Source of the DNA: Eledone cirrhosa
Taxonomy: Eukaryota
Length of the DNA: 64,000 nucleotides
Assembly: GCA_964016885.1 (NCBI GenBank)
Contig: OZ024740.1
Coordinates: 105,338,001-105,402,000, forward strand
Direction: 5' to 3'
Positions 8,061-62,947 of the stretch are shown here, piece by piece. A program made the position numbers and the translations under genes. The first letter of the stretch is position 1; every line of letters starts with the position of its first letter. The notes beneath the pieces were generated by a model, which saw only the letters and a list, made by a program, of their open reading frames with translations, searched no databases and was not told the DNA's origin.

Positions 8061-8502
8061 AAAGGCAAAGAATAATTCAAAGCCCAAATGTGATTTTATA
8101 GTCCACAGCAAGATAGGTAAAAGTCAGTTCAGGGTTTAATCCAATCGGTAAATTTCCAATCACAGTAGGATTATACCATAGAGCAATATATATAAAAAAA
8201 TGAATGAAAACAACCAGGATTAAATTATATTAAATTATCTAATTGATTTACGAACATTTCTATCAATACAGTAAGAAAATACATTTGCTCTGTATTGATA
8301 ACATAATTATTTACCAGCCACATGCCCGAACATCTCCATTTTGAAAACAAACAAATTTAATATACAATGGGGAAAACGTTAACACTTTATGGAAGACTAA
8401 ACAGGCAATTAAAGTTTATTAATAACAAAACACCGGCAGTGATTAAATATTACTTTGCTTGACTTATGCACGTATACTACAAACTAAAATAATTGTTTCT
8501 AC

Positions 8503-11196
8503 TTTAGCAGTATTGGTTATAGAGTAGTCGCCACTTTAGCAGGGTGGTAGAATCAGTGGTCGTTACTTTAACAGGGTAGATGATTGAAGGTCGTTAGTTG
8601 CCAGTGTGGTAAGTGATAGTATCCTCGTTGGATTATCTTGTTGACATAGACGTGAGGGAAGGTCCCTCGATCTATTTACCATCTATTTACAATATTCCTT
8701 TCGTCAGGTCGCCAATTCCAGCAGCATGGATTATAGATGTTATTGAGACACGAGTAACATAACAATGATTTCAACAGCAGTAATTAGAGATGAAATGTAT
8801 GTTTATTTATATGGTTGAAGTTACAGATAAAAAGAGGTTACACAAGGGAATGTGCCATTGCGCCGTTAAGCCGGCGACGCTAAAGTGCAAATCTCACCGT
8901 TACATTATGCGTGTTGCTGGCTTGAAGTTTCCGGTACAAGAGAGAGATTCTTCAAATCTTCGCGGGGAATTTCTTCCTCAGGGCGCGTAGGGATACATCC
9001 TCTTCTACTGGCGCTGATTGGCTGAACTGAGCCAAATCACGCACAGAGAATGTATGTGAGCCCGCGGAATGTAGGTCACTACATCACCTCCGACCAGATT
9101 TTCAGCCGAAAATCGATAACGAAGAAACCAAGGACCCACATATTATTGAATCAGCAAGAACAAATGCTGAAAGAGCACATCAGTGAAAAAATAATTGAGC
9201 AGAAAGATTCATGCAAGAACAAAAAAAAAATTAGGCGCGACGGGCCGTGTTGAGCCGCTGTCAAATGACTAGCTGTTTTGTAGTTTAAACGAGACCCTCA
9301 AGGGCCTACCAGAAAACAGATAAAGTCTGACATGGGCGAAGTTGCTGTTCTTGCATTAAATGTTAATGGTAAGCGTTGTACCAGTAGCTGTGAGAAAATG
9401 ATGGCCCCCAGATGTATTGTCGAATGTGCTGTGGAGCCAGGAAAAAATGGCTGGTTGCTTTTTGTAAAGAAAAAAAAGGCAAGTTTAATCTGTAGGTGGG
9501 CTGCAGTGTAAATTCCATAATTCGGGCGAATCCACAGAAGTGGCTGAAATATTGACAAGTCCAGTTCAATTTGTTGCTTTCCCAGCGAGTCGGGCAAAAA
9601 CAACAAGACGGATGGCCGTCATGGACGATCAGTGTGCAACGAGATGCGAAGCTGTTTGAGTTCAGCTGCAATTAGTATTCTCGTGTTGTGGTGCCTGTTT
9701 GAATCCAGTGGATTAAGCTCTGTGAGCTGCTAGCATGTGACAGCATCTCAACCAGGTGAAAAGGGACTCGCAGAATATTACGTTTGAAGAACATATACCA
9801 AGAACAACATGTTGGTGTGTGATAAAAAAAATGTATGCATATGCAGGCATGTAAAACAGCAAAGAATGTGAATGAACAAAAACCATGAGCAAACAAATAG
9901 CAAAAGAGCACAAAACAAGTAAATGCATTCTACAAAGAAATATGTGAATGTAACAAACTGATAATTCAAAGTCAATCTAGGGGAGCAGAGAAATTGCTCA
10001 ATAAGTTCAAAGTTTTTCAAAGTCAAATAGTTCACACATCACCAGTGTACAGACACTAGTTCTATCTGAAAACTGAAAAAGAAGTTTGCTAATGCCGTTA
10101 GGGGTTAGATGTATGGTGTTTTTGTGAGATTTCGTGGCCATCTTGTGTGGCATAAGGTTGTGTTGCTTATTGTTAAAGCAAAGTCAAAGTATCTTCTGTA
10201 GAGTAGCGGTCACCAAATATGGCACCCACGTCTGACACCATAATGGTGAGAAAACTACTGTCTCAATTTCTCGCGTCCCTGTGGTAACGAGACAGAAGGT
10301 ATGGTGGTTGCGTCGGTAAAGTTACAAGCCGTTTTGAAATTTCCGATGTGTGGTGGTTTGCGTCGGTAAGGCTATGAAGCTGCCGCTCACTATTCCCTGT
10401 TTTGGTCAGTGGCTAAACAATGTTGTCGCTGCTGCTGCTGTCTTTGTTGATCGTAGACAGGAGTTGTCGGTAGCCATTTTGAAATTTCTTCGTGGCGAAA
10501 AGTTTTTGAAATACTGCTAATTTTTCAAAAATCTTAAAAGGAATATTTTTTTATTTTCGCAAGTTGCGAAAAGGTTGGCAACGTGGCAATAAAAGTTCAA
10601 CTGAATGAAAAAGAAGGGCTGCGTTAAATTCTTACGTCGGTCACCACTTTAGCAGGGTGGTAGAATCAGTGGTCGTTACTTTAACAGGGTAGATGATTGA
10701 AGGTCGTTAGTTGCCAGTGTGGTAAGTGATAGTATCCTCGTTGGATTATCTTGTTGACATAGACGTGAGGGAAGGTCCCTCGATCTATTTACCATCTATT
10801 TACAATATTCCTTTCGTCAGGTCGCCAATTCCAGCAGCATGGATTATAGATGTTATTGAGACACGAGTAACATAACAATGATTTCAACAGCAGTAATTAG
10901 AGATGAAATGTATGTTTATTTATATGGTTGAAGTTACAGATAAAAAGAGGTTACACAAGGGAATGTGCCATTGCGCCGTTAAGCCGGCGACGCTAAAGTG
11001 CAAATCTCACCGTTACATTATGCGTGTTGCTGGCTTGAAGTTTCCGGTATAAGAGAGAGATTCTTCAAATCTTCGCGGGGAATTTCTTCCTCAGGGCGCG
11101 TAGGGATACATCCTCTTCTACTGGCGCTGATTGGCTGAACTGAGCCAAATCACGCACAGAGAATGTATGTGAGCCCGCGGAATGTAGGTCACTACA
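8503..11196 (-). mobile_element. Young non-autonomous Ty3/Gypsy-type LTR retrotransposon
   Basis: Two 549-bp direct repeats (8535-9083, 10648-11196) with a single visible mismatch (8937 C / 11050 T). 4-bp TSD CTAC (8499-8502, 11197-11200) splits a SINE (aattgtttctac|ttttggcacaagg). On the minus strand the LTR starts TGTAGTGACC, a PBS-like TGGTGACCGACGT (resembling a tRNA-Trp PBS) follows the 5' LTR, and purine-rich GGTCGGAGGTGA precedes the 3' LTR. The 1.56-kb internal region has no intact ORF. Confidence 0.9.
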
Positions 11197-13687
11197 CTAC
11201 TTTTGGCACAAGGCCAGCAATGATCCCAGTGCATTACTGGTACTTTATTTTATCAACCCCTAAGGATGAAAGGCAAAGTTAACCTCGGCGGGATTTGAAC
11301 TCAGATAATAAAATGTTATAGGAATACAAATAGAGCTTATAAGTTTAATTATACTTATTAATTGAAGTAACAACAATTAAAAGAATAACATTAATAGAAC
11401 ATATTAAGAAAAACAATACAAAAATTATAGAGGCTTAATTCCGTAATAAAAATATCAATCGCTAGAAGTTCTAGTTACTAAGAAACTAATAACCTAAACA
11501 ACTAAACCATAGCAAAGCCCAACACTAGGCAAATTGAAATAAACATAATATATGTATGATATGATGTGTCACATATACAATGGGACTTTGTATTTTAAAA
11601 TTATTTATAAAAAATTATTCTTTCTTTTTAACAAGTTTTTGTTATGCAGGCAGTACATAAAAGATACAAAGATTTAACAAGCAAAAGAATAAAATCTAAT
11701 AGGTGCAGCTATGGACCGACTGAGTTGAGTTTATTGAAAGAAATGTAGAACTGTTGTTTACTTAAGTCATAGTAATGTTATAGTAACGTTAAGTGTAGAG
11801 CAAGTGTACAAACAAGATATAAGAGTCCTGTTGTTCCTTGATAATACAACCCATTTTAATAGAGGCGAAAGGATTATTTTTAAAAGAAAAGATTATAAGT
11901 GTAAGGTAAGTTAAACATATTCACACACACACATATATATTTATATATATATATATACACATACACTCTCCGAAAACTAGGAATAGATCATATACACTTC
12001 AATGGGAAGTAGTATGTAGGGCCACATCGTATAAACCTCCGAATAAATTGTGTAACCTCTGTCTTCTAGAGACCCGTACTATAATCTTTTCGAAACTAGA
12101 CCTCCTAAATAGAAAATCAGATGTGTTTTCCCCATGCCAGCACCACTACCGACACTCGTTCCATACCTTTAAACCTAGCTGCTAGTATATAACAATGTCA
12201 GATTTGAATTCCTCACCTCTAGGACTTATCAGCCCCCACAGCAACACATTCTTTGATCAGCTCTTTCCTCTAGACAACTCCTATTTATCTCTAACCTTAT
12301 ACTCTACAATAACTATTAGAAATAAACATAAAGTTACCACCTTTTAATATAACTACTATAGCGTACATATATTATATACAGTAATGGATATATAATATGT
12401 AGAGACATTTAATGTAATATGTAATAATAAATTATATTTACATTTATAATTAAATATATAAATTAATATCATTGCATATAAGGGATTAACTTTTAACACA
12501 ATATAATGTATATTATTACACAAATGATTTAACTAATTGGACATATAAACAGCTATTCATTTTTCCATAACTTATATCTTGTCCAGTAATGAATAGATAA
12601 CAATCTAATGAGACCTTTAATGTATTATAGGAAAATAGACTGTATTTAAAATTAAGTATAAATATATAAAATTATGTAAAAGAGATTCACTTGTATCACA
12701 ATATAATGTGTATTAGAGCAAAGAATTTAAATAATTGATACTTTCCTGTATATTTTAATTTAATTTAATTAGCTAGTTACCTCCCCTTACGCATTAGCGC
12801 CCCTTAATCTTGGATCTCATACTCACTTCCGGAAATTAAACCGTTAGAAAAACTACCTGTTGAACAACTCTAATCCATGAATAAGAATACAATAAGACCA
12901 ATTTACAATCCATTGCTGTAACTAACTTAAAACAATCAATATAAACATTAACTAAAATATAATTTAACATATGTAATGGAAAAGACAACAATAACTTTGA
13001 TTTTCTCAACACACACACACATTCGAACACTATCATCACATTACATCCGCCATACATTTTTAATACACTAACACATTTGCTTGGTATTTTATGTGATACA
13101 TTTACCATACAGTATTTATTTATTTATTTATATATGCCTAATACCTTTGCTTGCTTCCTTATATATATGACTAACGCATGTGCACTCTCTACACGCTTGC
13201 ATATGTACTGCTAGTGTCCTCATTCTTTCTCAATGCTTCTTTCTCAATGCCTCTTTAATTATTAGACTATTCTCTTGTATTATCTGTCGCATGTATTCCA
13301 CTCTGTGCTTTTAATTTTAATTTGAATTTTTGTACAATTCTCGTATAATATATGACGCATCCATTACACCCTGTAAATACGAAACTGTTGTTCACAACAT
13401 CAATATATATGTATCTATATGATTGTTCAGTTGAATAGGAAGTTAATTATATGTACAAACATTGATAATGCTCCGATGATTCCAGACGAAAATTTGTAAG
13501 AAATGATTGTCAGCTATTAAATGATTTGAACATAACTTTGATAATTGTGTAATTTTATATTCCTGCTCTGTAAAACACTTGATGTTCTTATATTGAGCTA
13601 TTTCTCTTACTGGTAATAAGGTAGTAACAAATTACTGACCTTTCCTGTTTGTAGTTGTTTATAGTATATACATAACTATAAATAGTA

Positions 13688-21158: not shown

Positions 21159-24100
21159 TTCTTCTGGTTTTATAATTTCACAAATGTTTGCCAATAGAGA
21201 GAGAGAGAGTCGGTTTCTAACATAGACACAAGACACAACATCAACTAGGTAGATATGTCTGCATGTTTGCATGCATGTGTATGCAGGTATGGATGTTGTT
21301 GTATGTGTGGATGTGTGTGTTTTGAGTTATGTGTGTGCATGTGTATATGCTTTGTATCTCTACATGTGTATATGCAGTTATTAGATGCAGAATTTTTGGA
21401 ATGCTTTACCTTTCCAGTAATGGATTGTACTTGTAATTTCCTAATTAGTTGTGTTCTCTCTGTTTCTGTGAAGCCCAGCTTCTCAAGATTTGTACTGAGG
21501 AAGTTACTAACACATCCCAATGCCCCAATAATCACAGGCATAAATCTGAAGGTATAGTCGGGATGGCGTATCTGTAGATTTCTCATTAGTTCTGCATGCA
21601 TAGATATTCTCATTTTTGCTAATCTTTAATATTATATTGGTATCTGCTCGGCAGCTAACTGCCACTACTGTGCATGCCTTCTTTTCCCTGTCTCATATCA
21701 TTATATCTGGTCTGTTATGCCTGAATTTTATTGAGGTTTTTACTGGAACATTCCACCAGTACTCTTTCATATTATGTACATGTATGTCTTCCACCTTGCT
21801 GTAGCTTTTAATGTATTTATTATCGGGGCTATCTTTTCTACGGATTGCGTTGTACAGTATTTTGGCCACTACATCATGCCTCATAGGTAGATAGTACTGT
21901 GATGAGATCTTTGGACAGCTGCTTATAACATGGGTGACATCTTCGATGTTAATTCTGCAGAGTCTGCACTTGTTATCACATCTAGGTGTTTTGCCTGCAT
22001 CCCTATCTCTTTTGTGAATCAGGTATTTTGTGTTGATTTCCTGTTCTTGGATTGCAAAAGCATATATTTCAAAGTGGGAGCCAATATAGCGGTTGTTGGT
22101 CCAAGATAGACTACTTTGCTTATCTATATTACTCTCACTCTGGAGCTTCCTGGCCACATATCCATGCATGATGTTTTGCTGATAAGCATGCAGTTTTTCA
22201 TCCATGGATTCACTGCGGTACTGCTGGTCAATTCCCCTGGGTGTGAGTTTTTGATTGTCATGCAGGGAGTATCTTTCAAGGAGTTCCTTTCCAACACTCA
22301 TGATCTTATCTGTCTCATGTAGATAGACTTGCTCAATAGATGGACTCCTACGCTTCGAGGTTCGTAAATGTTGTCGGAGGGATATGATGCGACACTCAAA
22401 TGCTGTCTGGCCTGATGATAGGCCTCTGCCCCCCTACTTCAAGTAAAGGCGGTCTACGTCACTGTTGAAGTGGAAGTTGCCAGTGTTGTTTAGAATTTTT
22501 CGAGTTTTAACATCAATTGCTCGGATTTTGTCTATCGTCCAATCGAGTATTCCAAACGTTGGTGTTAGGACAGATACAGCAAACACATTGTGAGCCACTG
22601 TTTTATTGTGCGCAGAGAGTTCCGATGACCATATTTTTCTTAATCGAGTGTAATATTCCCTTGTTACGCGTTCCTTATTACAAATACCATTATATGATAT
22701 ATTCTCATCTATCCCCGGGTATCTGTAGCAGTCCTCGTCAGATATCGGTGAAACAGTTAGGCCATTGATAAAAATGTTGCTATATTGGGTTGTAGTTTTT
22801 CCCCGCTTTACAGTCATATAAAAATATTTATCTTGGCCAAACTCCATTCCTATATTCTCTGAGAATGTTGTAACCAGGTCAAGATTTTTATTCATCCCAT
22901 CTATGTTCTTGACATAGAGTTTCAGGTCATCCACAAAGAAATTATGGGTTAAGTTCGTATTTCTGTCCTCCTGTGAGCCAATGCTTCGCATTTCTTGAGC
23001 AGAAAGGACAAGGGGTTTAATGACAGGATGAATAATATCACAGAGAGACTGTCTCCTTGAAATATACCTATGTGATATTCTTTTTTATCAGTGAAAATGG
23101 AGTCCTCCTTCTCTGTTTTTAACTTTAGGATCGTAGCCCAAGAAGAAGACAGCTTCTCTTTGGCTCTGGTAATAATGTCTGGACCTTTAGAAAGTCGGAG
23201 GGCCTCTATCATCCAAGAGTAGAGAACAGAATCAAAAGCTTTCCTGTAGTCCAGCCAGACTGTAGCTATATTCTTCCTATGTTGTCGCACCTCCGACATC
23301 GCAGTTTTATTGATTAGGAGTTGTTCAGCACACCCGCAAACACCTTTCTTTCCAGCTGATTGTTCGTCTGTGATGATGTTATTATTTTCACAGTGATCTT
23401 GGAGAAATAGGTTCAGGCAGGCTGTATACATCTTATACATCAGGTTCTGGCATGCAATGTGTCGGTAGTTTTTTTGCCAAGTGGATGTCTTTGTTCTTGG
23501 GGACCAGTATTGTTTGTGCTACCATTCTGGTATATGTGTATCTCCCTTGAGAACTTGTGGGTAGAGGTCGATAAGATACATCCGATAGAATATCAGTTTT
23601 TTCTACCAGTAGCCGAGAATCATGTCTCTTCCTCGTGTTTTCTTATCGTGGAGTTTTCCAATCACAGTCTCAAGGGTATCCTCATTTATTTCGTACGTTT
23701 TTGTTGTAGTGAAGGAGCAATTGTTCTTTTGGATTTCTTTAAGCCACACTGTATTCTGGTTGAAATTTTTCTTTTCAGCCCATATTTTTCTCCAGAAGGA
23801 ATTTATGTCTTTCTGGGATCGAGCCTCAGTGACATTTATTATTTTGCCCTTCATATCTCTATAGACTGATGTTTGTGTCTTCTGAATCTTTTATTAAATA
23901 CTTTTCTTTCATCTACCCGCCTCAGGTATCGGTGTTTCTCACTGACAGTTCTCAATTCTTGTTTGAGAGTTATCAGCTTATATTGAAGAGTTCTGGTTGC
24001 ACTGTCACCAAACATCGTTTCTATTTTATTTTTCACTCTTTGTTGGTGAGGAGTGAAGGTTTTTTGTCCTTGTTTGCATGTATAGAGCATTGTCACATAT

Positions 24101-62572: not shown

Positions 62573-62947
62573 TGTAGTGACCTACATTCCGCGGGCTCAC
62601 ATACATTCTCTGTGCGTGATTTGGCTCAGCTCAGCCAATCAGCACCAGTAGAAGAGGATGTATCCCTACGCGTCCTGAGGTAGAAATTCACCGCGAAGAT
62701 TTGAAGAATCTTCCTCTCGAACCAGCAACACGTACATGTGACGGTGAGATTTTGCACCTTGGCCTGCCGGCGCAATGGCACATTCCCTTTTGTAACCTCA
62801 TTGTATGTGTAACTTCAACCATACAAGTTAACCAACATTATTTGTGCTACAACAAAAATAAACATACATTTCATCTCTAATTTCTGCTGTTGACGTCATT
62901 ATTATGTTACTCGTGTCTCAATAACATTTATAATCCATGCTGCTAAA
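62573..62947 (+). mobile_element. Solo LTR of the 8503-11196 family (short form)
   Basis: TGTAGTGACCTACATTCCGCGG ... CCATGCTGCTAAA with 4-bp TSD CATG (62569-62572, 62948-62951). Confidence 0.9.

Follow-up and report, generated by a model that had tools for sequence, protein, structure and literature searches.

The two LTRs of a retrotransposon are identical at insertion, which is the textbook outcome of reverse transcription and underlies both LTR dating and boundary calling. The window analyzed here, a stretch of 64,000 nucleotides from Eledone cirrhosa, carries on its minus strand a 2694-bp (2.7-kb) non-coding Gypsy element (8503-11196) that breaks this rule: its 5' and 3' LTRs show a single difference in 549 aligned nt, and a unit of 32 nt (8503-8534) is present in the 3' LTR only. 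How can two LTRs that are so alike end differently, and is this the accident of one copy or a property of a family? A reading made from the sequence alone had offered two answers, either the addition of one unit to the LTR end in each cycle or a one-off 32-bp deletion in this copy.

The window element and its relatives

The element is flanked by the 4-bp TSD GTAG (8499-8502 on the 3' side and 11197-11200 on the 5' side). The 3' LTR (8503-9083, minus strand; 581 nt) has the ends TGT...AAA and is preceded by a purine-rich tract at the position of the PPT (9084-9098, minus strand), and the 5' LTR (10648-11196, minus strand; 549 nt) has unit 2 as its last unit and runs directly into the PBS at 10647. 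The internal region (9084-10647, minus strand; 1564 nt) is non-coding; no ORF of at least 150 aa was found in 8503-11196 and no Gag in the element. The PBS (10634-10647, minus strand) is 2 nt shorter than the complement of tRNA-Trp: it pairs with a 2-nt gap with tRNA-Trp(CCA), whose gene was located in L275 by ARAGORN, and other family copies have the full complement.

The LTR end is modular and built of serial units, all on the minus strand, exactly as the sequence-only reading had described. Towards the terminus of the 3' LTR, an old LTR end with a decayed att motif is followed by an old PBS-like motif (together 8702-8724; predicted tRNA-Trp duplex of -17.1 kcal/mol), where the LTR extension starts. 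Between this old PBS and the unit array lies a captured spacer (8632-8701). The array comprises unit 0 (8598-8631), a decayed unit-like stretch classed as a unit from resemblance only, unit 1 (8567-8597), with a head that is decayed further and the att variant CTGTTAAA, unit 2 (8535-8566), with a decayed PBS-like head, a middle and the att motif CTGCTAAA, and unit 3 (8503-8534), with a PBS-like head and a tail whose last 21 nt equal the LTR end of a coding relative, the helper, at 20 positions. Unit 3 lies within the TSD and is absent from the 5' LTR. A solo LTR in the window (62573-62947, plus strand; 375 nt, TSD CATG) represents the unextended form: it stops at the first CTGCTAAA and is free of units and of the old PBS-like motif. 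At this same position the long LTR has the decayed att motif, the old PBS-like word, the spacer and then the units. The spacer had no blastn match in the internal regions of the helper or of the element itself, and the origin of the 106-nt LTR extension was sought in the same regions with no match. Within the internal region, two PBS-like words stand near each other (10198-10242, minus strand; predicted tRNA-Trp pairing of about -17 kcal/mol each), the second of which may resemble a tRNA-Leu PBS. Elsewhere in the window, the stretch 21693-23518 (minus strand) contains three open frames (189-246 aa) that overlap or adjoin one another and possibly belong to another retroelement.

Elements of the CsRn1 clade are characterized by a tRNA-Trp PBS, a 4-bp TSD, the LTR ends TGT...AAA or TGT...ATA, a Gag with the motif CX2HX9CX3C and a Pol in the order RT-RNase H-integrase (accessible part of PMC2582038). 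By its features, the window element can be classified as a non-coding, CsRn1-type Gypsy element. The helper has unit-free LTRs of 226-236 nt around approximately 5 kb of coding sequence and the same PBS as the window element; in L166 it encodes a Gag carrying CX2HX9CX3C (1700-2521 of that locus) and a Pol with the domains RVT_1, RT_RNaseH, Integrase_H2C2 and rve, i.e. RT-RNase H-integrase. A 4-bp TSD was found at the window element, at the solo LTR and in 59 non-autonomous and 18 helper pairs. The window leader, the first ~320 nt of the internal region, is 83% identical to the helper leader over 323 nt, the U5 segment is 84-87% and the terminal 21 nt are 95% identical, and the PBS is the same. 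As both share the PBS, the leader, a portion of U5 and the last 21 nt, the coding element is likely the helper of the window element. The latter has LTRs, a PBS and a PPT and no coding capacity, as expected of a non-autonomous element, and at 2694 bp falls outside the strict TRIM definition of a total length below 1000 bp (accessible part of PMC10886601).

An exact pattern detected 153 PBS junctions genome-wide, the short PBS being kept in 153 copies, and in 10 of 30 inspected loci with a full-complement PBS the copy belonged to the family or the helper and its leader was normal. Several candidate primers or primer sites gained little or no support. A search for tRNAs that complement the short PBS exactly gave one pattern match, which ARAGORN did not class as a tRNA. 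For heads starting with GTGGCGACCACGA a second primer was considered, presumably of the tRNA-Arg type; no matching gene was present among the 87 pattern matches listed, in a pattern search of limited power, and ARAGORN detected no tRNA in the six loci scanned. A subfamily with the C-type head as its true PBS had two matches genome-wide, and L195, a candidate tRNA end, proved to be the PBS of another element. In several unrelated LTR families (L229-L258), the LTR ends in CTAAA and the tRNA-Trp PBS that comes next is the same, and two loci (L233, L257) have a PBS-like word just inside the LTR end, which hints at unit formation in other families. Six solo LTRs on contig C25 (L002-L006, L011) have identical flanks and represent one insertion copied by segmental or tandem duplication.

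Discordance of LTR ends across the family

Loci were collected from the 3.0-Gb assembly by exact patterns and lie mostly on contigs C1-C4, and therefore form a non-random sample. Sets of 100, 20, 42 and 40 loci were fetched, of which 58, 13, 17 and 36, respectively, were dropped because no LTR pair or matching TSD was present; these were mostly helpers that need longer stretches, solo LTRs, interrupted copies and copies with mutated TSDs. Loci with both LTRs and a matching TSD were kept, giving 59 non-autonomous and 18 helper pairs. L166 was excluded from the pairs (mis-called 3' end) and L298 (internal region of 2116 nt) from the direction test described below. A pair was considered discordant when the last 40 alignment columns contained an indel of ≥ 3 nt or ≥ 3 events.

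By this rule, 28 of the 59 TSD-bounded non-autonomous pairs were discordant in the last 40 nt versus 1 of the 18 helper pairs (Fisher p = 0.0016), and the same rule applied to 11 other 40-nt stretches of the LTR marked 1-8 of the 59 pairs. Among the first 42 pairs, indels were 12-fold denser in the last 40 nt than elsewhere in the LTR (30 in 1680 nt versus 32 in 21466 nt, p ~ 3e-18), and LTR-body substitutions numbered 4.2 in discordant pairs, 3.85 in concordant pairs and 11 between copies. LTR bodies are ~99% identical within pairs (median body divergence of 1.1%), and ends are discordant even where bodies hardly differ, as in the window copy (1 mismatch) and L121 (0 in the first 290 columns). 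Only the tip of the LTR is affected. Upstream in U5 there is no gradient of swapped alleles, shared-allele differences are mostly ~1/10 of the expectation for unrelated copies (with one small bin at 0.53), and helper tails are hardly swapped, with 1 shared difference versus 25.8 expected if unrelated. Whole-LTR intermolecular plus-strand transfer from unrelated copies was rejected on these allele data and on the LTR bodies, whose divergence is no higher in discordant than in concordant pairs.

A script counted one unit more in the 3' than in the 5' LTR in 10 pairs, one fewer in 8 and an equal number in 41. Removal of four miscounts that arose from decayed att motifs (L115, L153, L163, L260) brought the count to 7 versus 7, with 45 of the 59 pairs equal; the remaining discordant pairs are swaps or small indels. 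Since 28 of 59 pairs are discordant and the change in unit number is balanced, neither a systematic 3' = 5' + 1 nor a one-off deletion fits the family. The addition of one unit per cycle, as the sequence-only reading had suggested, is thus contradicted, and the nested module order expected with it gave way to a combinatorial one. That the family gained units over time does hold, as its copies carry 0, 1, 2, 3 and once 4 units. The 32-bp deletion suits the local change in the window copy and fails for a family in which about half of the pairs are discordant. Identical ends and a fixed module set in other full-length copies, which would have spoken for a one-off event, were not what the family displayed, given its discordant pairs.

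For the window copy itself, the data favour a 5' LTR that has lost unit 3: by internal sequence this copy nests with the unit 3 carriers L099, L025, L077 and L260, and the pattern of unit 2 joined to the PBS word has seven matches, of which the window is one. Unit 2 is the terminal unit of whole lineages elsewhere (both LTRs of L316, solo LTRs L374 and L384), and L070, whose LTR body is closest to that of the window copy, is asymmetric in an identical way, so a gain at the 3' LTR is also conceivable. We consider the loss probable and the gain somewhat doubtful.

Source of the units and of the two ends

The junction between units has 339 exact matches in the genome versus 3 for a reversed control and is therefore not due to chance. 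In 172 LTR ends, ascertained by pattern, 160 non-first units comprise 77 distinct types; arrays consist of 1-3 units in 171 ends and of 4 in one, with units combined in varying order. Matches to one unit pattern are concentrated on the four largest contigs C1-C4, which make up 54% of the assembly and contain 41 of the 45 matches (p ~ 8e-8).

The middles of the window's units 1, 2 and 3 show no significant likeness (p 0.29-0.67), so their descent from one another as tandem duplicates is not supported. Nor is there support for copying of the primer, another suggestion of the earlier reading: the longest words they have in common with the tRNA-Trp gene measure 4-6 nt. The look-alike word in the internal region (10198-10214, minus strand) is a real PBS-like sequence but resembles unit 3 no more than chance allows (p = 0.14, 500 shuffles), so it was discarded as a donor. 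The middle of unit 3 matches the helper U5 tail (p = 0.0005; 20/21 terminal nt). More generally, 6-mers of common units or helper tails cover 88% of 131 rare middles, versus 37% for shuffles; a few middles are not accounted for by known units. Helper tails are present in both LTRs of L090, L130, L315 and L375, in the 3' LTR only of L156, L388 and L107 (a tandem array) and in the 5' LTR only of L313; they are joined to unit heads at several different points, and in L130 the junctions differ between the two LTRs. Three further loci (L076, L134, L146) have tails of other sub-lineages. There has been exchange of tails within the family as well as between it and the coding helper, and these grafts together with the 6-mer coverage indicate that a unit is an inherited PBS-like head joined to the U5 tail of some family RNA. 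Unit heads are predicted to pair with the 3' end of tRNA-Trp at -8 to -12 kcal/mol, versus -19.9 kcal/mol for the PBS.

The pattern itself, namely a modular U5 array with two-way discordance and tail exchange, is observed directly and well supported; the steps that lead to it we infer from integrated genomic copies only. Our preferred reading, to which we assign a probability of roughly 0.6, is that in about half of the copies the two LTRs differ at their ends since the final 25-40 nt of each LTR would have been copied separately, from two co-packaged RNAs that may include the RNA of the helper. A second template is needed since foreign tails occur in one LTR only. In such a scheme, short minus-strand DNA primed by tRNA-Trp would be made on one RNA; at the att and PBS-like word common to both RNAs, or at a microhomology of 2-5 nt, it could move to the other RNA and so fix the 3' LTR end. 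Later, the minus strand would continue beyond the PBS, enter the other RNA's still uncopied U5 tail and pair with the plus-strand strong-stop DNA, which would fix the 5' LTR end. Pairing in register would result in a tail swap and pairing out of register in a unit gained or dropped; as changes in the 5' LTR would be heritable, the array could grow, shrink and shuffle. Heads that bind the primer poorly would be likely to persist, as a good upstream head would prime and the unit would be lost.

This two-RNA reading draws support from internal regions that are mosaics of sub-lineages, from L146, whose leader and 5' U5 tail fall with one sub-lineage and whose LTR body and 3' tail fall with a second, from 3 of 30 loci (L231, L247 and L255, the latter equal to L317) in which an 18-nt tRNA-Trp copy precedes a jump, and from stuttered att motifs beside the PBS (L351, L153, L107). 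L134 has the opposite linkage, its leader grouping with the 3' tail and not with the 5' tail, and counts against it. In a direction test, which is a weak one, the nearest relatives resembled the 3' end more in 19 of the 28 discordant pairs and the 5' end more in 9 (p = 0.087); against any concordant copy the result was 19 versus 7 (p = 0.029), so that the 3' end is weakly favoured as the common state. L153 was scored as 5'-derived, but its odd 5' end is common to L107 and thus inherited. Because there is no upstream U5 gradient and helper tails are barely swapped, any two-template step has to be a short one that occurs far more often in the non-coding family. Since 10 of the 30 full-complement loci belong to the family or the helper and have a normal leader, the PBS may sometimes be re-copied from the tRNA, unlike in the strict Ty3 scheme. 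A second RNA is unnecessary for roughly half of the discordant pairs, those with clean unit loss or small indels. More tentatively, trans priming may be routine: a tRNA-primed cDNA of 25-35 nt from the partner RNA, often that of the helper, would jump and provide the 3' LTR end, and the element's own RNA would provide the 5' LTR end.

Unusual joints were recorded at several individual loci. L107 (G000:C4:93913000-93922999) contains five LTRs and four internal regions in tandem with a period of 2135 nt and a single TSD ATTG; LTRs 1-4 share one end and the last LTR has a helper tail. At L317 (= L255), L231 and L247, an LTR with its 18-nt tRNA-Trp copy abuts an LTR start or other sequence, as fossils of aberrant plus-strand transfer. 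L109 continues past its 3' LTR with a short templated patch, after which the LTR end recurs in inverted orientation (fold-back), L299 has a PBS word and a short hairpin in place of the TSD after a helper 3' LTR, and in L145 and L069 a terminal tail and PBS abut inverted element sequence with no normal LTR.

Discordance could also arise on a single template or after insertion, when units slip in DNA-templated synthesis, in host replication or by ectopic gene conversion; the window copy would then be a 32-bp deletion between CTGCTAAAGTGG repeats. Such slippage accommodates the clean losses of whole units (window, L068, L070, L084), the internal unit duplication in L266, the concordance of the unit-free helper and the nesting of the window copy among unit 3 carriers. 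As a general account it is nevertheless unlikely, because the helper tails of one LTR (L156, L388, L107, L313) and the sub-lineage tails (L076, L134, L146) are not in the element that received them, gene conversion confined to the terminal 30 nt apart. Moreover, discordance does not follow LTR-body divergence, a proxy for age, as the window copy and L121 illustrate, and the dissimilarity of the three middles indicates that the units are not recent tandem duplicates of each other.

An artefact of assembly or polishing, by which reads of other copies would be mixed into the tandem units of single LTRs, deserves consideration, as assembly is difficult where a multi-copy repeat contains short tandem units and, among the reads and contigs listed, none bridged flank and LTR at the window locus. 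It is quite improbable, as the TSD is intact in every counted pair, helper pairs of the same assembly are concordant and one-sided ends are in many cases unique sequences. In other individuals, raw reads contain unit-skipping joints (21 reads for X9, 26 for X10 and 15 for X11) and, in eight reads, helper-type tails next to unit 2, and a contig of a second organism (organism B) contains the leader, the PBS, a helper tail and units. These reads and this contig show the variants to be real DNA, the 5'/3' phase aside, which the reads do not show.

A ratchet that adds one primer-derived unit to the 3' LTR per cycle, leaving a polarised repeat/spacer record, has hardly any probability left, for although the 3' LTR has one whole unit more in the window, L068, L070 and L270, unit number increases along some branches of the internal-sequence tree and the exact PBS word opens three units in 5' LTRs and not in their 3' partners (L071, L072, L146), gains and losses are balanced with most pairs equal, arrays are limited to 1-3 units in 171 of 172 ends, unit order is combinatorial rather than nested, middles have no match to the tRNA and the U5 end of the 3' LTR is not inherited in the standard cycle (accessible part of PMC6894440).

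Relation to known systems and meaning

The nearest known counterparts are CsRn1, PwRn1 and AgCR of the CsRn1 clade of Ty3/Gypsy elements, with which the family shares the tRNA-Trp PBS, the 4-bp TSD and the TGT...AAA ends, and whose type of Gag and Pol is encoded by the helper (PMC2582038). In contrast to these, the window element lacks an ORF of at least 150 aa, and its LTR is lengthened by ~200 nt past the old end by the old PBS, the captured spacer and the att and PBS-like units; in the accessible part of that report, LTR pairs are near-identical and no such array is mentioned. The partnership of the autonomous RLG_Cereba and the non-autonomous RLG_Quinta likewise involves a shared PBS, shared LTR termini and recombination between lineages that is ascribed to template switching, as outlined in the accessible part of PMC11302176. 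Here, however, only the terminal ~25 nt of the helper U5 are grafted, repeatedly, with varied junctions and often in one LTR, and old ends stay in tandem instead of being replaced.

In Ty1 and Ty3, the plus strand is transferred through R-U5 complementarity at the 3' end of the minus strand, and the PBS is not inherited from the tRNA (accessible part of PMC5371799). This provides a step at which the U5 of the 5' LTR meets a second, independently made U5 copy, and the short PBS persists in 153 copies. Some family copies, by contrast, have the full tRNA complement, and the accessible text reports neither heritable LTR-end discordance nor unit arrays for Ty1/Ty3. In the standard cycle, both U5 ends derive from one minus-strand start, which results in identical LTRs (accessible part of PMC6894440). 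The same source describes clans of LTR retrotransposons in which co-packaged heterologous RNAs give mosaic progeny, like the internal regions here, but with two identical LTRs, whereas about half of the pairs in this family differ at the U5 end.

The family departs from a polarised, CRISPR-like repeat-spacer array in two respects, as there is no unidirectional addition (7 versus 7) and the order is combinatorial. Among tRNAs and small RNAs, a search for a spacer source covered the tRNA-Trp gene and gave no match, and family tails explain 88% of the rare-middle sequence. The array is not a new acquisition or memory system. Within the literature consulted (open papers, mostly as abstracts), no stacked or tandem att and PBS units and no routine discordance between 5' and 3' LTR ends were found. 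Partnerships with shared termini, template switching and recombination of co-packaged RNAs are known already; the stacked units and the routine discordance of the tip would be new.

The rule of LTR identity fails in this family in about half of the copies, at the U5 tip only, and the unit-free helper serves as a built-in negative control. If the two ends do come from different RNAs, the assembly can be read for co-packaging partners and sites of strand transfer in an animal Gypsy clade that lacks biochemistry, and one route by which LTRs lengthen beyond their own PBS comes into view. Should routine trans priming be true, every insertion would record both RNAs of its particle, the stacked units would be a fossil series of borrowed integrase-attachment ends, and a retrotransposon's parasite would have a way to keep its end matched to the integrase of its helper.
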